In this document: piece by piece, positions 3,517 to 46,875 of the stretch
Position numbering within the stretch: position 1 is the stretch's first letter
Layout: every line of letters begins with the position of its first letter
Assembly (NCBI GenBank): GCA_045636425.1
Contig: JAZTXM010000006.1
Span: 8,784-72,783 of the forward strand
Source: Clostridia bacterium
Lineage (GTDB): Bacteria > Bacillota > Clostridia > UMGS1883
Reading direction: 5' to 3'
Length of the DNA: 64,000 nt
Notes under the pieces: generated by a model
The model's database searches: none
Seen by the model: only the letters and a program-made list of their open reading frames with translations
Told to the model about the DNA's origin: nothing
Position numbers and translations under genes: made by a program

Positions 3517-5013
3517 TTACATTTTCCCTCTTTTATAAAGACCGCTTAGATTTTTGTAAAACGCCCTGTCTATACCCGAAAGGGCTTCTTCGGTAATTCT
3601 GAAGCACCAGTTTCCCTCTGCCACTCCGGGGTGATTCATACAGGTATCGGAGCCGAAACCGCACAAATCCTGAATAGGAACTATAGTAAGGATTGCGCCG
3701 CTCCTCCACAAGGTGCGGATTACACTGCGTATGGAATCGCTGTGAAATCCTCCCTGCCCCCAATCTCCGTGAAAATCGCAGTAATCCATAGCGTAGGCAC
3801 GGCTTTTCTCATCGGATTCCCACAGCCAGCCTAAAAGTGTATTGTTATCATGGGTACCTGTATATCCCACTGTGTTTTTAGTGTAATTATGGGGAAGATG
3901 CACCGTGTCATCATCGGTTATAAAGGCGAACTGCATTACGCCCATTCCGGGAAAGCCTGCTTCTTTCACCAGATTTCGCACATCGTCATCAATATCTCCC
4001 AAATCCTCGGCAATAATATTTGCATCGGGATATTTTTCTTTAAGCTTGTTAAAAAATTCGATTCCGGGCCCTTTTTCCCATCTGCCCTCGGTAGCCTTTT
4101 CCCCGGCAGGGATAGACCAGTAGGCGGAAAATGCACGGAAGTGGTCTATTCTTACGGCATCATACATTTTAAGAGCACAGCCAAGTCTGTTTATCCACAA
4201 ATCGTAGCCTGTTTTTTCAAGATTATCCCAGTTGTAAAGAGGGTTTCCCCATTTTTGTCCGTCCTCGCAGAAATAATCGGGGGGCACTCCTGCACATCTT
4301 TTAAGGTTCATATCCTCATCCAACGAGAAAAATTCGGGGTTTGCCCACACATCGGCACTGTCGTGTGAGAGATAAATAGGCATATCTCCGATAATGGAGA
4401 TACCTTTTTCGTTTGCGTACTTTTTCATGCTTTCCCACTGTGAAAAGAATTCGTACTGCAAAAATTCGTAAAAAGAAATATCCTCGGAAAGCTCCGCCTT
4501 TGCCTTTTCCAGGGCATCACTGTTGCGAAGCTTAAGACCCTCATCCCACTCATACCAGGGGAGGAGAGAATTTTTTTCTTTAAGAGCACAGAAAAGAGCG
4601 TAGTTCTCCACCCACGGATTTTTACTGCAAAAATCCGCAATTTCGCCTTTCATTTCCTCCGAAAGGCGTGAATATGCCCTGCGGAAAATTTTCTCTCTGG
4701 TGTTTTTTAAAAACTCATAGTCCGTTACATATATATCGGAGGATTTACATTCCTCCACATCGCTTTTTGTTAAAAGCTTTTTCTCCATAAGTATTTCGGG
4801 GTCAATAAAATAGATATTCCCTGCAAAAGCACTCTTTCCGCTGTATGGGGAGTTATAGTCATCGCAGGGACCGCAGGGCAGTACCTGCCATGCCCCAAAT
4901 GAGCAGGAGGATAGAAAATCTATAAAATCGCTTGCTGCCTTTCCCAGTGTTCCTATGGCAAAAGGACCGGGGAGGGAGGAAATGTGCATCAATACACCGC
5001 CGCATCTTTTCAT
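3517..5013 (-). CDS. malQ: 4-alpha-glucanotransferase (amylomaltase, GH77)
   Basis: N-terminal GVLMHISSLPGPFAIGTLG typical of MalQ; 498 aa. Confidence 0.85.
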   Translation of the reverse strand: MKRCGGVLMHISSLPGPFAIGTLGKAASDFIDFLSSCSFGAWQVLPCGPCDDYNSPYSGKSAFAGNIYFIDPEILMEKKLLTKSDVEECKSSDIYVTDYEFLKNTREKIFRRAYSRLSEEMKGEIADFCSKNPWVENYALFCALKEKNSLLPWYEWDEGLKLRNSDALEKAKAELSEDISFYEFLQYEFFSQWESMKKYANEKGISIIGDMPIYLSHDSADVWANPEFFSLDEDMNLKRCAGVPPDYFCEDGQKWGNPLYNWDNLEKTGYDLWINRLGCALKMYDAVRIDHFRAFSAYWSIPAGEKATEGRWEKGPGIEFFNKLKEKYPDANIIAEDLGDIDDDVRNLVKEAGFPGMGVMQFAFITDDDTVHLPHNYTKNTVGYTGTHDNNTLLGWLWESDEKSRAYAMDYCDFHGDWGQGGFHSDSIRSVIRTLWRSGAILTIVPIQDLCGFGSDTCMNHPGVAEGNWCFRITEEALSGIDRAFYKNLSGLYKRGKM

Positions 5014-5014
5014 A

Positions 5015-5758
5015 TTAGAATACCTCCGTAATTTGCTGAATCAGATAATAAACAAGGGGGATAAACATAGAGGGAAGCATGTTGGCAAGCTTAAGCTTCG
5101 GCTTATACAGAAAGTTAAAGCCGATTCCCATAATAAGTATACTTCCCACAAAGGACATTTGTGCAATAACCGTTTCGGTAAGAAGCGGTGCAAGGAAAGA
5201 TGCACAAAGCGTTATAAGCCCCTGATAAAGTGCAATTGTAACACTTGAAAACATTACCCCTATTCCCAAGGTTGAGGCAAAGACCATTGCCATAATCATA
5301 TCTAAAAGGCTTTTGGTAATAAGAATGGTAGGATCGTGAAGAATCCCATCGTTAAGAGAGCCTAATATTGCCATCGAGCCTACACAGAACACCAAAGACG
5401 CCGTAATAAATCCCTCGGCAAAGGAGGATGAGTCCGAGGAGAATTTTTTCTGAAAAAAGCTTCCCATATCATCAAGCCCTTTTTCGATGTTAATAAGCTC
5501 CCCAAGCAGTGTGCCCAAAGCCAACGATATTACCATAAGTATTATGTAATCGGACTTCAAAACACCTTTTTCGCCTACACTGCAACAAGCGGTGATTATC
5601 CCCGTCAGCCCGATTGTCATTGTGGCAAGAGCCAGAGCCTGGGTAAGGCTGGTTTTGAGCCTTTCAGGGATTGCTTTTTTAAGAAGAAGCCCCAAAAGCG
5701 AGCCTATTATTACTAAAATAATATTTATCATTGTACCTGTTCCGGGCATATAAATCAT
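5015..5758 (-). CDS. DUF554 family membrane protein
   Basis: Polytopic membrane protein with an N-terminus (INIILVIIGSLLGLLLKKAIPERLK) typical of DUF554/YqgA. Confidence 0.55.
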   Translation of the reverse strand: MIYMPGTGTMINIILVIIGSLLGLLLKKAIPERLKTSLTQALALATMTIGLTGIITACCSVGEKGVLKSDYIILMVISLALGTLLGELINIEKGLDDMGSFFQKKFSSDSSSFAEGFITASLVFCVGSMAILGSLNDGILHDPTILITKSLLDMIMAMVFASTLGIGVMFSSVTIALYQGLITLCASFLAPLLTETVIAQMSFVGSILIMGIGFNFLYKPKLKLANMLPSMFIPLVYYLIQQITEVF

Positions 5759-38490: not shown

Positions 38491-39660
38491 ATGTATCATA
38501 ATAAAACCGCTTCGGCAGTCATAGTAGCTGCAGGCTCGGGCACACGAATGGGCAGGGACAAGCTTCTCATTGACTTGTGTGGAAAAACCACCATTGTCCG
38601 CAGTGTCGAGGCTTTTAAAAACACAGGTTTTTTTGATGAAATTATACTTGTGGCAAGCGAAAAAAACATGGAATCCATAAGCTCCGAAATGGAAAACCAA
38701 TCCCTTTCGGACGATGTACGTATAATTCTCGGAGGCAGTAGCCGCGGCGAAAGCTCATTTCTTGGTATAAATGCCGCAAAAGGTGAATATGTCCTTATTC
38801 ATGACGCTGCTCGCCCCCTCGTTTCAGCTCAAACCATTGAGGACACCCTCTCTGCTTGTATTAAGAGCGGTGCCGCGGCGGCAGGGGTAAAATCCAAGGA
38901 TACAATTAAACAGGTTTCCCCGGATAATACCATTTCCGCGACAGTTCCCAGGGAATCGGCAGTGCTGATTCAGACCCCCCAGGGCTTTAAACGTGCAGAC
39001 ATTCTGTCTGCATATAGTGAGTACGGCTTTAACGAAACCGACGACTGTTCCCTTATGGAAAAAATGGGGGCAAGCATAGCCATAGTGGAGGGGAGCTACG
39101 AAAATTTGAAGCTTACCACGGCGGAGGATGTTGTAACCGCAGAGGGAATCCTCAAAAAACGCGGCGAAGGAAGGAGTGTTGTTCCCATGCGTGTCGGAAC
39201 AGGCTTTGATACACATAGACTGGTTGAAAACCGTGACCTTATAATAGGCGGAGTAAAAATCCCCTACGAAAAGGGGCTCTTAGGGCATAGCGATGCCGAT
39301 GTACTTATTCATGCAGTGATTGATGCACTCTTTGGAGCGGCGGCATTGGGGGATATCGGAACGCATTTCCCCGATACCGATGATAAGTATAAGGGCGTAT
39401 CAAGCATGCTTCTTTTGGAAGAAGCGGCGCGGCTTATTCGCGAAGAAGGCTATGAAATAGGGAATATAGATGCCACCATCATCGTACAAAAACCAAAAAT
39501 GGCACCCCATATCCCAATCATGTGCCGCAATATTGCCGATGCCGTAAAAACCGATGCTTCACGCATCAGCATTAAGGCGAAAACCAACGAACAAATGGGC
39601 TTCGCCGGCAGAGGCGAAGGAATCGAAGCCCGAGCCGTAGCATTATTATACCGCAACTAA
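38491..39660 (+). CDS. ispDF: Bifunctional IspD/IspF (MEP cytidylyltransferase / MEcPP synthase fusion)
   Basis: N-terminal [13 protein letters not shown] (IspD) and C-terminal GFDTHRL...[30 protein letters not shown] (IspF) in one 389-aa ORF. Confidence 0.8.
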
Positions 39661-39668
39661 AATAATTG

Positions 39669-39697
39669 TTGACATTTAACCCACATGGATATATAAT
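39669..39697 (+). promoter_or_regulatory. Consensus sigma-A promoter (TTGACA-17-TATAAT) driving a short sRNA (module A)
   Basis: Perfect -35 and -10 hexamers with a 17-nt spacer. Confidence 0.65.
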
Positions 39698-39703
39698 GAA
39701 TAT

Positions 39704-39775
39704 AGAAAAAGGCAAAACCTCAAACGGTTATGCCAAAGAATAGTTGCAAATTTTAAAGAGTAACCGTCTTTGCCG
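39704..39775 (+). ncRNA. Putative antisense sRNA A, about 72 nt, of a type I toxin-antitoxin-like module
   Basis: Lies between the consensus promoter and an intrinsic terminator (9-bp stem gagtaaccg/cggttactc + TGCTTTT). Overlaps the 3' end of the convergent small hydrophobic ORF. About 85% identical to the paralog at 45688-45779. Confidence 0.5.
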
Positions 39776-39833
39776 AGGCGGTTACTCTGCTTTTATCGCA
39801 AATGTTATTAACAACACAATTGTTAGAAAGAAT
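39762..39833 (-). CDS. Type I toxin-like small hydrophobic peptide, paralog A (IQYILRIFFLTIVLLITFAIKAE). Its start position is ATT rather than ATG, so it is possibly inactivated
   Basis: Homologous to ORF 45629-45697 in sequence and context. Own RBS AGGAGG 8 nt upstream. Promoter TTGAAA-17-TATAAT on the minus strand at 39908-39936. Confidence 0.35.
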
Positions 39834-40024
39834 ATTCTTAATATGTATTGAATAACTACCACCTCCTCTCGGAGCGTGGCATAACCGCCGGTGAAAAACA
39901 CCGTTAAGAAGTTTTGCCTTCCTAAACATTATATCGTATTTTCCCCGGCGTTTCAAGAAAAATTTTGAATTAACATAAAACATCCCCCTTTTGGATAATA
40001 TATCTCTAAAAGGGGGCTTTTTCT

Positions 40025-41131: not shown

Positions 41132-41160
41132 TATCACTCCTCCCCACAGACTGTCGCCGC

Positions 41161-41189
41161 CCTTGACAAAATCAAAATAACATTATATA
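41161..41189 (+). promoter_or_regulatory. Consensus promoter TTGACA-17-TATAAT for the RelE-like cassette
   Basis: Perfect hexamers and spacer. Confidence 0.6.
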
Positions 41190-41225
41190 ATAATAGTATA
41201 AAGATTTTTTCTTGGAGGATATGCT

Positions 41226-41486
41226 GTGGTTATCAGATATTCAAAAAACGCATTGCGATTTCTAAGCAAGTTGGATAAAAACTCTGTAACGCGTATAAGA
41301 AATGCTGTAGATGGATTGCTTCATATTCCGCCTGAGGGCGATATAAAGCTTCTCAAGGGATATGATGATGCTCGCAAAAGGTTGCGTGTAGGTTCATGGC
41401 GTATAATTTTCAAGTATGTAGCGGAAAATAAGCTTGAAATATTATATATTATAGATATAGGTAATCGTGGGGACATATATAAGTGA
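41226..41486 (+). CDS. Type II toxin, RelE/StbE (ParE superfamily) family; GTG start
   Basis: Aligns with E. coli RelE across its length (ALRFLSKL...KLLKG...RLRVGSWRIIFKY...LEILYIIDIGNRGDIYK). RBS GGAGGA 7 nt before GTG. Confidence 0.7.
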   Translation: MVIRYSKNALRFLSKLDKNSVTRIRNAVDGLLHIPPEGDIKLLKGYDDARKRLRVGSWRIIFKYVAENKLEILYIIDIGNRGDIYK

Positions 41487-41498
41487 GGAGGAGATACA

Positions 41499-41720
41499 AT
41501 GTCTGAAATTGTTGCTAATGCAGCTCGAATGATGGAAATGTTGCCTGATTCTGAAAAAAGCTTTGCATTTGAGTTTATAAAAAAGCTTGTCCTTGCGTGG
41601 GATCCTGATTTTACAAAAGTCACTGCGGAAGAAGCAAAGCAAATAGAGGCAGCGGAACAAAGCGGTTTTGTTGATGAGAAGGATATAGACTGGAACAACC
41701 TGTCAAAAATGTTTGACTAA
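41499..41720 (+). CDS. Small acidic protein (73 aa), candidate cognate antitoxin encoded downstream of the toxin
   Basis: Follows relE-like 12 nt later with RBS GGAGGAG; no recognisable HTH or RHH; terminated by a perfect palindromic hairpin at 41722-41757. Confidence 0.35.
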   Translation: MSEIVANAARMMEMLPDSEKSFAFEFIKKLVLAWDPDFTKVTAEEAKQIEAAEQSGFVDEKDIDWNNLSKMFD

Positions 41721-42005
41721 CAAAACAAGGTGGGATTGCGATGCAATCCCACCTTGTTTGTTTCTTAAAAAGTCAACCCCCAATATTAAAAATCCGACTT
41801 TCTTCCTATTATATATAACAACAAACCCCGTGGGGTTTGCACCATCACTCTGCATTTCGCACTCCAATTGCGGCAGGACAGCAGGACCCGTCCCCACAGA
41901 CTGTCGCCGCCCCCCTGTTTTGTAACATAACCATCACAAAACTCTATTTATGTGTTACTTATGTTACAAAACATTACAGTTTCATTACATCTGCAAAAAA
42001 CCTAT

Positions 42006-42098: not shown

Positions 42099-45000
42099 AT
42101 GAGAAATCTCAAGAAGACACTCGCAGTTGTTCTTGCATTTGCTATGATTCTCAGCATGGGTCTTACATCCATGGCTGCGTATTCAGACGTAGAAGCAGGA
42201 ACAAAAGTTTCCGAGGCTGTTGGTATCCTTTCTAACCTTAACATTCTTACAGGTTTTGAAGATGGTACATTCAAGCCCGACGAAACTGTTACAAGAGCTC
42301 AGATGGCTGCTATCATCTGCCGTACACTCGGTTACGAAGATCAGGCACAGTCAAGCATGGGCACAACAGTATTTAACGACGTTGCCGCTGATCACTGGGC
42401 ATCAGGCTACATCAACGTAGCTCAGGCACAGCAGATCATCAACGGTTACGGTGATGGTAACTACGGTCCCGAGGATCAGGTTACTTACGAGCAGGCAGTT
42501 AAGATGATCGTTTCCGCTCTTGGTTACGACCTTGCTGCACAGTCAAAGGGTGGTTACCCCACAGGTTACCTTGCAATCGCTTCTGCTGAGGGCATCACAA
42601 AGAGTGCTAACGGTAAGGTAGGCGACGCTGCTGCAAGAGGAACAATCGCAATTCTCGTTTACAACTCTCTCGAAGTTCGCCTTATGGACCAGGCTTCTTG
42701 GTCTACAGGTTCTGACGGAGACAAGTATGAGAAGACAGACGACACAATCCTTTCTAAGTACCTTGAGGTGTTAAAGGTTGAAGGTGTTGTTACAAAGACT
42801 CCTTTTGCTACCTATGAATCTAAGGGCTTTGACGCTGACATGGTTCCCGAAATGACAATTGATGGTAAGGAATTCTACTACAATAAAGGTGTAGAAGAAA
42901 CTAAATCATATTCAGATACAGTTGATTGCAGCCTTGTTGATGCTGACTCACTCCTTGGTAAGTACGTTGTTGCTTACATTGGTGCTGACGAAGACGACAA
43001 TACAGGTAATGTAATGGTTTACGCTGTTTCTGAAAAGCAGAATAAGAACGTTGTTACAACAGTAGCAAGCACACAGCTTGTAGATTCTACTGATACAAAG
43101 TATTTTAATAACGCTAAGCAGGTTTGCTACAGGGAAGTAGGTTCAACAAGAGTTATTGAACTCGACCTCGAACAGACTGCAGCAGAATTCAAAGTATATG
43201 AAAACTTTGGTACAAGCACATTTACAAACGCTTCTACAACAGCTAACCTTGCTACAATTCTCCAGGAGGGTGGCATGGCTCAGTTCATCAGCAATGACAA
43301 TGATGATGCTATCGAATATGTAATCATCACTGCATTTGATGAAGAAGGCGTTATCGAAAACGTAACTAATGAAGATGGCGTTATTATGTTCGACCTCTTC
43401 TACGGTGACCTTGCTGATATCGATACAGAAGACGAAGATGAGCTCACAGTTGTTTACAAAGACGGTGCTCTTGCAACAGCTGCTGATCTTGCTGCAAACG
43501 ATACAGTTTCTACTGTAAACGTTCACAAGACTGTTAAGGTTCTCTACGCTTCTTCTGCAACAGTTACAGGTGCTGTTGAGTCTCATGATGACGAAGTTGT
43601 AACAATCGGTGGTACTGACTACAAAGTTGGCCTTCAGTACAGCGGAGATGCAAGCCTTCTTAAGGATAAGGAAGGTATCTTCTTCCTTAACGTTGGCGGT
43701 ATCATCGCTCACGACGAAGCAGATTCAACAGCTTCAGGCAACTACGGTGTAGTTCTTGCTGTTGATTACGAAGATGGTATTACAGATGGTTATGTAATGC
43801 AGGTTGTTCTTCAGGACGGTACGGTAGCTGAGTATGAAGTTTCTTCTAAGGTTGCTTATACAAAGGCTGACGGTTCTGCTCTTGCAGTAGGTGATGGTCT
43901 TAGCAAGGATGACGTTGCAGCAGCTGCTGTAGCTTCAGGTATCACAGGTGCTACTGTAACAGCAAATGCTTCAGGCTTCACAACTAAGAACCTTACTTCT
44001 ACGAACGCTCAGGCTGCTGTATACAAGTTTACAGTTAAGAACGGCGAAATCACAAAGATTAAGGAAGTTGAATCTTCTACAGAAGTTAAAGAATATACAA
44101 GCAGCGATGTTAAGAAATATGATGCTGAGTCTATGAGCTATGGTTCATATGAATTCGACGAAAGCTCTATCGTATTCGCAATTGACCATGCAAAGGGTGC
44201 TACTCAGGTTACAGACGATGATATCGCTGTAGGTGGCGTATCTTCTTTCATCGCTGATGAAGATGATAGCCTTGCACTTATTCTCTTCACAGAGAAGAAT
44301 AAGGACGTTGTAACATTCGCAATTGGCTTTGGTCTTACAGCAAGTATCCCCGAAGAGTCTGCTGCAATCATCGTATCAGCAGTTAAGAATGTTACTTATG
44401 ATGATGACGAAGCTATTCAGGTAACAGGTATCCAGGCAGGCGAAGAAGTAACTTACATCATCTATGATGAAAACAGTGGTTACACATCAAATCCTGAAAA
44501 CATCGAAAAGGGTGACGTAATCCTTGTTTCTGCTGCAACAGCTGAAGGTGTAGTAGAAGACTGCAAGATCCTTCTTGACATTTCTGCTAAGACAGCAGCA
44601 GCAGGCATCGCTGCTGATGAAAGTGCTAACACATTTGCTCTTCTCGGCGGATTCTACAACGACGATGCTGCTGCAACATCTTCTAAGTTCTTCATTGATA
44701 AGGATGTTACAATCCCCACAACTCCTTCTGCTACAACTTGGGCAGCATCCGGAGACGGTATCACAATGAAGACATCTGCTAACTACACACTTGTAGATTA
44801 CACAGATGGTGAAAAGAACCCTGTTATCGAGAAGAAGAATCCCGGAACTTCACTCTTCAGCAAGAGATATCCTGCTTACGTATTCGTAAGAGTATATGAC
44901 GATGTTCTTACAGAAGTTGTTGTTTACCGTTATGATGAAGATAAAGTTCTTTCTGCACAGGGTACAGGATTCAAGGTTGCAGATCCTGTAATCAAGTTTA

Positions 45001-45206
45001 ATGATGACAAAACAAAGGCTACAATCACATGTGCTACAGAGGGTGCTACAATTATGTACAAACTCAACAGCGGTGAATTTGCAAAATATACAGAGGAAAT
45101 TACTGTAACAGCAGGTGATGTTGTTCAGGCTTATGCTACAAAGACAGCTTGTACAACAAGCGATACTGCTTCGGAAACAGTTCCTACTCCTGCTCCCGCA
45201 GCTTAA
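42099..45206 (+). CDS. Major S-layer protein candidate (1035 aa), N-terminal SLH triplet
   Basis: Signal peptide; three SLH repeats; a large Thr/Ala/Val/Asp-rich beta-rich body. Codon usage is strongly biased toward T/C-ending codons, a highly-expressed-gene signature distinct from its neighbours. Confidence 0.8.
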   Translation: MRNLKKTLAVVLAFAMILSMGLTSMAAYSDVEAGTKVSEAVGILSNLNILTGFEDGTFKPDETVTRAQMAAIICRTLGYEDQAQSSMGTTVFNDVAADHWASGYINVAQAQQIINGYGDGNYGPEDQVTYEQAVKMIVSALGYDLAAQSKGGYPTGYLAIASAEGITKSANGKVGDAAARGTIAILVYNSLEVRLMDQASWSTGSDGDKYEKTDDTILSKYLEVLKVEGVVTKTPFATYESKGFDADMVPEMTIDGKEFYYNKGVEETKSYSDTVDCSLVDADSLLGKYVVAYIGADEDDNTGNVMVYAVSEKQNKNVVTTVASTQLVDSTDTKYFNNAKQVCYREVGSTRVIELDLEQTAAEFKVYENFGTSTFTNASTTANLATILQEGGMAQFISNDNDDAIEYVIITAFDEEGVIENVTNEDGVIMFDLFYGDLADIDTEDEDELTVVYKDGALATAADLAANDTVSTVNVHKTVKVLYASSATVTGAVESHDDEVVTIGGTDYKVGLQYSGDASLLKDKEGIFFLNVGGIIAHDEADSTASGNYGVVLAVDYEDGITDGYVMQVVLQDGTVAEYEVSSKVAYTKADGSALAVGDGLSKDDVAAAAVASGITGATVTANASGFTTKNLTSTNAQAAVYKFTVKNGEITKIKEVESSTEVKEYTSSDVKKYDAESMSYGSYEFDESSIVFAIDHAKGATQVTDDDIAVGGVSSFIADEDDSLALILFTEKNKDVVTFAIGFGLTASIPEESAAIIVSAVKNVTYDDDEAIQVTGIQAGEEVTYIIYDENSGYTSNPENIEKGDVILVSAATAEGVVEDCKILLDISAKTAAAGIAADESANTFALLGGFYNDDAAATSSKFFIDKDVTIPTTPSATTWAASGDGITMKTSANYTLVDYTDGEKNPVIEKKNPGTSLFSKRYPAYVFVRVYDDVLTEVVVYRYDEDKVLSAQGTGFKVADPVIKFNDDKTKATITCATEGATIMYKLNSGEFAKYTEEITVTAGDVVQAYATKTACTTSDTASETVPTPAPAA

Positions 45207-45259: not shown

Positions 45260-45446
45260 GGCTGTTCTTTTTTGTCCGCTTGACAACAAGCATCAAAAGT
45301 GGTAAAATATGCCCATAATCTTTATTGGAGGGGATAAAATGACAAAGCGTATTACATGTGTACTGATGATGTTCATCCTTGTGTCACAAGGATGCTTTGC
45401 ACAGGACGTGTTTTTTGGAAAAGCCAGAACAGAGGAATATATTCCG
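45260..45446. repeat. 187-bp direct repeat, copy 1, identical to 46798-46983. It contains a promoter, RBS and the first 36 codons of the transglutaminase-like gene
   Basis: Both copies can be aligned in the raw sequence. Confidence 0.85.
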
Positions 45447-45493
45447 GTGATAATGGGGACGGGTGATAATGGGGACGTACATTTTTTGTCAAC
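45447..45493. repeat. Solo copy of the element end: two copies of the 13-mer GTGA(T/C)AATGGGGAC followed by GTACATTTTTTGTCAAC
   Basis: Nearly identical to 45839-45885 and to the inner part of the inverted right end at 46675-46793. Confidence 0.75.
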
Positions 45494-45514
45494 TTTTCCC
45501 AAAACAAAAAGCCA

Positions 45515-45543
45515 ACCGAAGTTGACTTTTCTTTCGCAATACT
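45515..45543 (+). promoter_or_regulatory. Consensus promoter TTGACT-17-TATAAT for the type I toxin-like mRNA (module B)
   Basis: Perfect -10 hexamer, 5/6 match in -35, 17-nt spacer. Confidence 0.6.
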
Positions 45544-45628
45544 ATATAATAGAACACAAGGTAAGACCTAAAACAGTGTAACAGCTGGGCGGTTATGCCA
45601 TCATCTTCTTTTAAGGAGGTGATAGCTT

Positions 45629-45697
45629 ATGGATAGTGAATACATAATATCTTTTATGTTAATTCTGTTACTTTTAGTAATTTCCATAAAAAAATAA
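45629..45697 (+). CDS. Type I toxin-like small hydrophobic peptide (22 aa): MDSEYIISFMLILLLLVISIKK
   Basis: RBS AAGGAGG 9 nt upstream of ATG; a single predicted TM helix with a C-terminal KK; stop codon inside the stem of a bidirectional terminator; convergent antisense promoter downstream. Confidence 0.5.
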   Translation: MDSEYIISFMLILLLLVISIKK

Positions 45698-45779
45698 CGC
45701 CAGCCGACCAAAGCAATAGCGTTATTTTTTAAATAATTCTGATGTTTTGGCATAACCGTTTGAGGTCTTGCCTTTTTCT
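45688..45779 (-). ncRNA. Putative antisense sRNA B, about 90 nt, convergent with the toxin-like ORF and overlapping it 3'-to-3'
   Basis: Minus-strand promoter TTGACT (45809-45814)-17-TATAAT (45786-45791). Ends at the shared hairpin (aataacgc/gcgttatt) plus U-tract. About 85% identical to sRNA A. Confidence 0.5.
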
Positions 45780-45880
45780 ATTTACATTATATAACCACAT
45801 AGGGAAAAAGTCAACCCCTAATATAGAAAATCCATCTAGGTGACAATGGGGACGGGTGACAATGGGGACGTACATTTTTG

Positions 45881-46618
45881 TCAACTTTTGTATATTATTC
45901 CTCGCGATATCCCGGTCACCCGTTCCAGTTGTCGTATTGAATACTCTTTCTTCATTTTATTTAACATCGCATTTCGCTCTTTCTTTTCCATGGTACAGAT
46001 GTTTTTAGGCTCAATTTTGTACTTTTTTATTATCCTTCTTCTTATTTCATCATCTGTCAGCTTTACTTTTCCATCTACATTAAAATCGCTCTCTTCGTCT
46101 TGTTTGTGAAACTCAACAAATTCTTCTTTGCTTATCATTCCCAAGATAAAATCCTTGTCAGTTATTCTGGATTCATCAAAAATGTACTCATTATAACTCG
46201 ACCATTCATAGTCCTTCAATTCATCTACTATTCCTGCCTTTTTAGGATTTTGATGTATATATCGGACTAAGCATAAAAAATATTCATCTACATCAACAGC
46301 CTTACTTTTATATCTGTTTGCAATTAATGCTCCGCTTCTTCCATACTTTATATTGTACCAGCGAGCATATTTTGTCAAAACCCTTTTCATTATCAGCGAT
46401 ATTTCACCGGCAGTTTTTTCTTTTAACAAAATATGTACGTGGTTACTCATCAGACAAAACGCATATATTTCGTATTCCATTTCGATTTTGATGCTGTTTA
46501 ATATCTCTATCAACTTTTCATAATCCACCGATTCTTCAAAAATATGCTGCCTGTTTACTCCTCTAAAAACAATGTGGTATATCCCACTTTGACTGATCAC
46601 TCTCGCTGCCCTTGCCAT
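45881..46618 (-). CDS. IS200/IS605-type Y1 transposase-like protein (245 aa) with a C-terminal HTH extension
   Basis: HuH motif (SNHVHILL) and catalytic Tyr region (RYIHQNP) of the Transposase_17/Y1_Tnp family; C-terminal SIRQLERVTGISRGIIYKS helix-turn-helix. Confidence 0.75.
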   Translation of the reverse strand: MARAARVISQSGIYHIVFRGVNRQHIFEESVDYEKLIEILNSIKIEMEYEIYAFCLMSNHVHILLKEKTAGEISLIMKRVLTKYARWYNIKYGRSGALIANRYKSKAVDVDEYFLCLVRYIHQNPKKAGIVDELKDYEWSSYNEYIFDESRITDKDFILGMISKEEFVEFHKQDEESDFNVDGKVKLTDDEIRRRIIKKYKIEPKNICTMEKKERNAMLNKMKKEYSIRQLERVTGISRGIIYKS

Positions 46619-46674: not shown

Positions 46675-46793
46675 GTTGACAAAAAATGTACGTCCCCATT
46701 GTCATCCCCATTGTCAGTCCCCATTGTCACCGTCCCCATTGTCACCCATTGTCACCCATTGTCACCAATGTCACTCCGTCCCCATTGTCACTC
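46675..46793. repeat. Right inverted end: about 8 tandem copies of the CCCCATTGTCA(C) 12-13-mer
   Basis: Direct reading of the sequence; inverted relative to the left-end 13-mers. Confidence 0.85.
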
Positions 46794-46875
46794 AACTGCT
46801 GTTCTTTTTTGTCCGCTTGACAGCAGAGTAAGAATGTAGTAAAATATATCCATAATCCTTATTGGAGGGGATAAA

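Follow-up and report, generated by a model that had tools for sequence, protein, structure and literature searches.

A toxin-first RelE-type gene pair with a putative antitoxin of an unnamed protein family in a Clostridia genome

Introduction

What do two small genes placed one behind the other between htrA and a gene for an S-layer-homology (SLH) protein encode, and how did they come to lie there? The question is raised by a 64,000-nucleotide stretch of the genome of a Clostridia bacterium (UMGS1883; assembly GCA_045636425.1, contig JAZTXM010000006.1, positions 8,784 to 72,783 of the forward strand), hereafter called the window, to which all coordinates refer unless another locus is named. 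A first-pass annotation of this sequence had listed exact 22-bp direct repeats, a consensus promoter, a GTG-start open reading frame (ORF) for a RelE-like toxin, an acidic ORF of 73 amino acids (aa), a terminator and a piece of a boundary element, all of which we located. It had taken the 73-aa protein to be either a novel antitoxin fold or the unrelated neighbour of an orphan toxin, and had proposed that the whole was inserted as a unit by way of the repeats.

Our analysis indicates, with a probability of about 0.78, that the locus is a two-gene type II toxin-antitoxin module consisting of a RelE-type toxin and its 73-aa partner. What is new is the unnamed, widespread family to which the putative antitoxin belongs, together with its queA-linked, slowly evolving distribution in Oscillospirales. 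The partner family comprises more than 1,000 proteins, yet no public domain library names it and no structure represents it; its members are plentiful in the Oscillospirales of gut and rumen, in which very few toxin-antitoxin systems have been characterised, and naming the family would make testable antitoxin predictions out of hundreds of "hypothetical protein" annotations.

A RelE-branch toxin encoded ahead of its partner

The 86-aa protein (gene at 41226..41486, plus strand, GTG start; isoelectric point (pI) 9.99) is a toxin of the RelE branch, as judged by its fold, its catalytic residues and its match to a sequence model. PHROG 1213 ("RelE-like toxin") matches it over its full length (E 8.6e-16), and the profile of its family aligns end to end with Escherichia coli RelE and P. 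horikoshii aRelE. Its AlphaFold2 (AF2) model (mean predicted local distance difference test, pLDDT, 83.4; predicted template modelling score, pTM, 0.74) has the element order E-H-H-E-E-E, in agreement with the RelE fold (two N-terminal helices on an antiparallel beta-sheet). Foldseek returned 18 matches in the PDB at E <= 1e-3, of which the top eight were all RelE (template modelling (TM) scores of 0.64-0.71); the best matches were 1wmi, 9g12, 2khe, 4fxe, 3bpq and 3g5o, and ParE structures and HigB2 ranked below RelE.

Six residues (K51, R52, R54, R59, R81 and Y85) are invariant across 30 members of the toxin family and align, in HMMER alignments, with K52, K54, R56, R61, R83 (or R81) and Y87 of E. 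coli RelE. The catalytic residues of RelE (K52, K54, R61, R81 and Y87 in E. coli) are missing from the ParE gyrase poisons. Homology predicts that the 86-aa protein is catalytically competent as an mRNA endonuclease that depends on the ribosome. At least 1,061 homologous proteins were found; most have PF05016 recorded and carry the NCBI name "RelE/ParE family toxin". The toxin is under purifying selection (omega about 0.06), and a HigB-like Pfam match was weak (E 2.6e-3, 18.6 bits against a cut-off of 27). The RelE-type assignment made in the first-pass annotation is thus upheld by the PHROG match, the end-to-end profile alignment and the RelE-best structural matches, and so is the toxin-first order, as the partner gene lies downstream and the 94 nt between the htrA stop codon and the toxin start contain no ORF and no upstream antitoxin gene.

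The putative antitoxin gene (41499..41720, plus strand) encodes 73 aa with a pI of 4.35, a predicted all-helical structure and AWDPDFTK as the conserved core of its family. It begins 12 nt after the toxin stop codon, which is directly abutted by a ribosome-binding site (GGAGG, 41487..41491, 7 nt 5' of the ATG), an arrangement that suggests coupled translation. The toxin gene has its own GGAGG, read from the sequence at 41214..41218, 7 nt 5' of the GTG. Upstream of it lies a promoter-like site of the form TTGACA-17-TATAAT (41163..41191, plus strand) that agrees with the sigma-70 consensus at 12 of 12 positions, and the partner gene is followed by an intrinsic terminator (41723..41759, plus strand) with a 17-bp stem, a 3-nt loop and a T-rich tail. 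The two small co-oriented genes are therefore arranged as an operon, 12 nt apart and sharing a single promoter and a single terminator. Within 130 nt of the toxin start, a 12/12 promoter site was present in 22 of 58 homologous loci and one of at least 11/12 in 32 of the 58. A hairpin also occupies the terminator position in relatives, with unrelated sequence in loci L009 and L011 and as a variant of the window's in L106-L114. A search by eye for an operator-like palindrome around the promoter gave nothing convincing.

From this layout, the strong, constitutive-type promoter would yield a bicistronic mRNA, making the locus a self-contained type II operon. The toxin would cut mRNA in the ribosomal A site, and the helices of the 73-aa protein would most likely wrap around it and block its activity, comparable to RelB on RelE or PaaA2 on ParE2. 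As no DNA-binding domain can be recognised in the 73-aa protein, autoregulation, if it occurs, would have to work in another way; both toxicity and the mode of regulation are inferred here. A role in phage defence was considered and set aside, as there was no match in PADLOC and only 10 toxin-seeded matches were found in 2.9 million viral contigs.

Pairing, toxin decay and a change of gene order

The pairing of the two genes was assessed in 80 species-level loci, found and fetched through the 73-aa protein, of which 75 could be assessed for gene decay and 58 yielded extracted pairs. The toxin gene stands directly upstream of the 73-aa gene in every species locus with an intact toxin gene (56/56), the spacer between the two measures 3-22 nt in the 58 extracted pairs, and GGAGG or a close variant of it is found in the intergenic spacer (9-22 nt) of nearly all homologous loci. 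The same arrangement recurs around a distant member of the 73-aa family (about 50% identity), and the family is encoded directly downstream of the toxin in 8 of 10 toxin-seeded viral contigs.

Decay affects one gene only. Nonsense mutations (L018, L023, L045), frameshifts or deletions were identified in the toxin gene of 14 of the 75 assessable species, and the toxin gene is absent in five more (one of them a cultured Lawsonibacter isolate; 19/75 in total), whereas the 73-aa ORF is intact in all 75. Loss confined to the toxin is what a toxin-antitoxin relationship predicts.

The two most distant relatives of the toxin, in L101 and L102, have a small acidic helical gene upstream instead, i.e., in the canonical order. 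The upstream partner in L101 is 100% identical to a Bacillus cereus protein and is part of a family that occurs chiefly in Bacillus and genera close to it; its members are labelled "hypothetical" or "DUF2281 domain-containing"; weak matches to DUF2281 occur in 20 of 31 members, the best (E 5.9e-4) lying below the cut-off. A profile comparison by hhalign aligned the 73-aa family with this Bacillus family over 56 columns including both helical halves (probability 93.6%, E 2e-7); the same comparison with the upstream partner in L102 gave no meaningful similarity. The homology of the 73-aa family to the Bacillus family, whose genes precede those of cousin RelE toxins, suggests that gene order was flipped within one toxin-antitoxin lineage, and the locus would be a clean natural example of such a flip; that type II systems swap partners and vary in gene order is already well documented (PMC10440598). 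Taken with the pairing, the homology indicates that the 73-aa protein is probably the toxin's antitoxin, which would act by direct binding and neutralisation.

An unnamed family of small acidic proteins

More than 1,100 homologues of the 73-aa protein were found, all labelled "hypothetical", with relatives in 386 species of GTDB; judged from the 80 fetched loci, the family resides mostly in metagenome-assembled genomes (MAGs) of Oscillospirales and in some isolates. Neither the protein nor its profile has a meaningful match in Pfam, NCBIfam, PDB, PHROG or PADLOC, and matches to Imm52 (E 0.004) and PDC-M17B (E 0.013) were rejected as being at chance level. DUF2281 (PF10047) is matched by none of 44 family members at E <= 5, and tblastn of the 73-aa protein against collections of plasmid and phage records gave no match. 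The protein is under purifying selection (omega about 0.10) and its charge is opposite to that of the basic toxin.

Profile searches of Pfam, NCBIfam and PDB detected no DNA-binding domain of the helix-turn-helix (HTH), ribbon-helix-helix (RHH), AbrB or Phd type in the family, in agreement with what had been read from the sequence at first. The AF2 model of the protein alone is all-helical (helices at 3-13, 17-34, 43-55 and 65-71) and non-compact (pLDDT 81, pTM 0.41), and Foldseek found no structural neighbour for it in PDB or BFVD. Modelling of the single chain, which had been suggested as a check, does not establish a novel antitoxin fold; the model looks more like a peptide that folds on binding than a new globular fold. 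Of the earlier description as a novel antitoxin fold, the part that survives is that no named family in the libraries searched includes the protein.

Three single metagenomic proteins (P0244, P0383 at 362-808 of L090, and P0389) fuse the 73-aa domain to an N-terminal domain, although these may be chimeric assemblies. The N-terminal domains are an XRE-type HTH, which has Pfam matches, and RHH-like and HicB-like domains, which were read from the sequences by eye. The rare fusions, as read here, have the domain order usual in antitoxins, in which the toxin-neutralising part follows a DNA-binding one. A lone intact 72-aa homologue with no trace of a toxin gene occurs at 5001-5219 of L047, from the GC-rich genome of the cultured isolate Lawsonibacter sp. 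LCP25S3_F5; the gene before it, 28 nt away, encodes an unrelated protein of 136 aa.

Relation to known toxin-antitoxin systems

The window pair is most closely related to uncharacterised pairs of Bacillus in which the gene order is the opposite. In the prophage-linked pair of the B. cereus group and its relatives (phrog_36841 and a PF05016 toxin), the toxin is 50% identical to that of the window, and the partner, an 85-aa "hypothetical / DUF2281-like" protein, is encoded upstream in the canonical order and is about 12 residues longer, with homology over the 56 aligned columns. No sign that this partner had been characterised was found, and its sources name it "hypothetical protein".

RelBE (E. 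coli; aRelBE of P. horikoshii and Methanococcus jannaschii; RelBE1/2 of M. tuberculosis) resembles the window pair in the fold, size, basic residues and C-terminal Tyr of the toxin, and its antitoxin is small and acidic like the 73-aa protein; however, the gene order is reversed here, and the 73-aa protein has neither sequence similarity to RelB nor an RHH domain. HigBA, as well as MqsRA and BrnTA, likewise places a toxin of the RelE superfamily first, but HigA and MqsA carry an HTH and BrnA an RHH, neither of which was detected in the 73-aa protein. Having no RHH antitoxin upstream and no HTH in its partner, the window system is neither a canonical RelBE nor a HigBA; it is a variant and not a new kind of system.

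A DNA-binding domain in the antitoxin and autoregulation are common among type II systems but not universal: PaaA2 is a short helical antitoxin without a DNA-binding domain that folds on its toxin. ParE2-PaaA2 of E. coli O157 (PDB 5cw7/5czf), the toxin of which belongs to the RelE/ParE fold superfamily as does that of the window, is probably the nearest analogue for the way in which the 73-aa protein may work. It differs in that ParE2 is a gyrase poison without the RelE catalytic residues and in that its operon is antitoxin-first with a separate regulator, PaaR2; no third gene was found at the window operon.

A DUF2281 protein has been validated as the antitoxin of a toxin-first VapC system of a marine isolate by toxicity and rescue (PMC12654330), and for Synechocystis, PIN proteins are listed with DUF2281 partners (PMC4963859). 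The toxins of these VapC/DUF2281 and PIN/DUF2281 pairs are PIN-domain RNases and not RelE, and the 73-aa family has no DUF2281 match.

The flanking direct repeats

The 22-mer TCCCCACAGACTGTCGCCGCCC is present as an exact match at 41141..41162 and again at 41891..41912 (both plus strand). In the 64-kb window no further copy was found at <=3 mismatches, and none in 100 shuffles; the identity between the two copies extends to 27 nt at 93%. The sequence truly shared by them is only about 19-24 nt long, because the terminal CCC has a different origin in the two copies: in the upstream one it belongs to the conserved CCCTTGACA, which forms the left edge of the sequence common to the window, L009 and L011, and in the downstream one it is part of a C-run. 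The proposed search for the repeat elsewhere, extended to metagenome contigs with its 19-mer core, yielded three chance matches in unrelated contigs of 58-64% GC.

The repeats were compared in about ten related contigs that carry the pair at the same SLH-proximal site. The upstream 22-mer is kept (21/22) just before the -35 element in L009 and L106-L114. In these relatives it closes a repeat-rich spacer of 250-600 nt and is followed by 11 nt (ACATCCTCCCG) that are missing from the window; the spacer between htrA and the toxin gene measures 94 nt in the window versus 344, 612 and 649 nt elsewhere, and that of L009 holds a complete small-peptide module. In this strain the upstream repeat block would have been almost wholly deleted, leaving the window's copy as a 3' remnant of a GGGGACG-type repeat or of a type I module boundary element. 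The only carriers of the downstream 22-mer are the window, L106, where 19 of 22 positions agree, and L111, where 20 of 22 do and the copy is embedded in a direct repeat about 55 nt long. Among nine related loci in which the downstream spacer is fully covered, L106 and L111 are the two that carry it; it is missing from L009, L107, L108, L110, L112 and L011, the last of which has a different upstream gene and neither copy. In the window the downstream copy closes a boundary-element remnant (41767..41890, plus strand) of the small hydrophobic-peptide, type I-like modules. This remnant includes a minus-strand hairpin at 41821-41840, aligns with 5405-5650 and 6296-6560 of L009, and at 41767-41795 is 90% identical to 45805-45833.

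Similar short repeats are frequent nearby. A Y1_Tnp (IS200-like) gene of 245 aa (45881-46618, minus strand; Pfam E 2.8e-16) lies 4 kb from the pair and is flanked in inverted orientation by two tandem arrays (45839-45879 and 46691-46800) of a 16-nt unit, GGTGACAATGGGGACG / CGTCCCCATTGTCACC. The gene and its arrays look like a REP-associated tyrosine transposase (RAYT) with arrays of repetitive extragenic palindromic (REP) sequences. The 22-mer ends in the CGTCCCC/GGGGACG motif of these units; on the other strand it reads GGCGACAGTCTGTGGGGA(CGG) and shares the pattern GGYGACA...TGGGGACGG with the array unit, from which it differs by a 4-nt insertion and one substitution. The likeness to REP/REPIN elements with their RAYT lies in a Y1_Tnp gene between inverted GGTGACAATGGGGACG arrays, seen within the 64 kb examined, while the 22-mer departs from the array unit and shares its motif only partly. 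Short GGGGACG-type repeats and fragments of type I-like modules take up both intergenic spacers around the pair, and in the related contigs GGGGACGG...CCGTCCCC hairpins occur in the same spacers.

The 22-bp copies are best read as the ends of polymorphic REP-like or module-boundary blocks. Because they are polymorphic among relatives and the GGGGACG motif is common in nearby repeats, we do not regard them as the ends of a cassette, and it is likely that they are not an insertion scar, whether target duplication or att pair. The insertion of the pair as a unit through its direct repeats, proposed at first, does not agree with a downstream copy restricted to three carriers or with spacers that differ greatly in length. 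In its fuller form, that proposal would have the unit from promoter to boundary enter the htrA-SLH spacer by recombination at a 22-bp site, either attL/attR-like or as a long target duplication. Such an event would explain the 22/22 identity of the flanking copies and the low GC content of the pair (36-39% versus 48-50% in neighbouring genes), and it would be in line with the 55-nt flanking repeat of L111, the 19/22 copy of L106 and the position of the pair after queA in many other species. It is nevertheless improbable, because six of the relatives have no downstream copy despite the same site upstream of the SLH gene, L011 has no 22-mer at all beside its different upstream gene, the last 3 nt of identity have different origins, the motif is shared with common surrounding repeat units, no recombinase is carried, and homologues are absent from plasmid and phage records and number only 10 in 2.9 million viral contigs. 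No empty site (an htrA-SLH junction without the pair) was found. In genomes rich in REP-like sequences, perfect short flanking repeats are no evidence of insertion.

The usual genomic home of the pair and its evolution

Across Oscillospirales, the pair usually resides at the 3' flank of queA (L010-L089; e.g., 1566-4475 of L001 and 1635-4401 of L005). In 42 of the 80 species loci, tblastn placed queA upstream of the pair at a distance of no more than 5 kb; it is the adjacent upstream gene in 29 of the 80, and tgt lies directly downstream in 15. Most of the remaining neighbours occur in one species only (82 singletons among 93 clusters of neighbour genes, counted over upstream and downstream ORFs together). 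Between the pair and tgt the DNA varies strongly, and in L001 and L005 genes for tyrosine recombinases are located a few kb downstream. As the usual site elsewhere is directly after queA and the pair is poorer in GC than the genes around it, the pair has moved in the lineage of the window, and its position between htrA and the SLH gene is a relocation.

Whether the module has long resided at the 3' flank of queA or this flank is a hotspot of insertion is a tractable question raised by the queA link together with slow evolution, and the distribution fits both; the flank could be an integration hotspot inside a conserved queA-tgt-yajC cluster. Third-position GC content (GC3) of the two genes tracks that of the host (rho 0.75 and 0.67), yet it is lower (0.41-0.44 versus 0.59). 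Distances of the toxin and of queA correlate poorly (rho 0.13), and at least one genome has two copies of the pair (L068, L076).

These data bear on the possibility that the pair has been domesticated: having ceased to act in addiction or defence, it would be passed on vertically in Oscillospirales as a housekeeping regulator of translation with a functional tie to the queuosine genes, queA and tgt. The frequent proximity of both genes would be expected in that case, as would the identities in loci carrying all four genes (about 78% for the toxin and 70% for the partner where queA has about 60%), the omega values of 0.06-0.10 and a GC3 that follows the host. We consider it quite unlikely, however, because the toxin is inactivated or lost in 25% of species and is therefore dispensable, the pair retains a strong promoter of its own, and its GC3 remains well below that of the host; the poor correlation with queA distances, the duplicate in at least one genome, the mostly species-unique downstream neighbours (as expected at an insertion hotspot) and the window copy, which does not adjoin queA, point in the same direction. 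A wider form of the idea, in which the pair would not be a selfish addiction cassette but an ancient and largely vertical resident of the queA-tgt region, evolving more slowly than its housekeeping neighbours, with a domesticated RelE coupled to queuosine tRNA modification or translation control and an antitoxin without a DNA-binding domain, likewise seems doubtful.

Weighing the toxin-antitoxin assignment

Several observations weigh against the assignment of the locus as a type II module with flanking repeat debris. The window toxin scores 21.3 bits with Pfam ParE_toxin (PF05016), just below the cut-off of 23, and, searched as a single sequence, it matches RelE entries of the PDB weakly (E 0.5-0.9). 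The link of the 73-aa family to DUF2281 is indirect, as it runs only via the Bacillus family and there below threshold. The asymmetry of decay is inflated by the use of the 73-aa protein to find the loci, and part of the frameshifts in toxin genes may be assembly errors of MAGs. The 22/22 identity of the window copies is higher than expected for old repeat debris. The pair also evolves unusually slowly for a toxin-antitoxin module, the toxin at about 78% and the partner at about 70% identity compared with about 60% for queA and 71% for tgt, which could point to a role beyond addiction.

The weakest of the alternatives, that the locus has no protein antitoxin and that the 73-aa gene is a chance neighbour of an orphan toxin, could appeal to the absence of any known antitoxin family among direct matches of the 73-aa protein, but it is very unlikely given the consistent pairing, kept across hundreds of species and down to about 46% toxin identity, the short intergenic spacer with its ribosome-binding site, the homology of the 73-aa family to the upstream partner of cousin toxins and the similar sizes of the two families (1,061 and 1,100 proteins). 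Of the two possibilities considered at the outset, the antitoxin is therefore favoured by the 56 of 56 paired intact loci and by the partner homology.

Other features of the surroundings

A third array of the GGTGACAATGGGGACG-type unit is located at 45446-45486. In L011 the perfect palindromic repeat GACACATTGGGGACAGTCCCCAATGTGTC occurs three times around the pair (4270-4300, 4430-4460 and 5440-5475) and forms a second REP-like family on the same GGGGAC core.

Modules resembling type I toxin-antitoxin systems occur in the window at about 45500-45830 (peptide ORF at about 45620-45688, plus strand) and as a mirror copy at 39657-39990 (peptide on the minus strand), as well as in L009 (about 5150-5400), L011 (about 5270-5400) and L114. 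Each encodes a hydrophobic peptide of 22-25 aa behind a GGAGG (MDSEYIISFMLILLLLVISIKK in the window, MGNDYIIHFMIVLLLLVITIKK in L009). The copy at 39657-39990 is perhaps a decayed one, as its start codon appears to be ATT. An 81-nt inverted repeat (39657-39737 versus 45746-45826, 81% identity) contains a convergent consensus promoter (TTGACA-17-TATAAT, 39669-39697). At gathering thresholds Rfam identified only a tRNA in the window, so the modules match no known RNA family.

The SLH protein encoded downstream of the pair (42099-45206, plus strand; 1,035 aa, GC3 0.34) is a fast-evolving surface protein, with 47-52% identity in close relatives versus 91-96% for their toxin-antitoxin and htrA genes.

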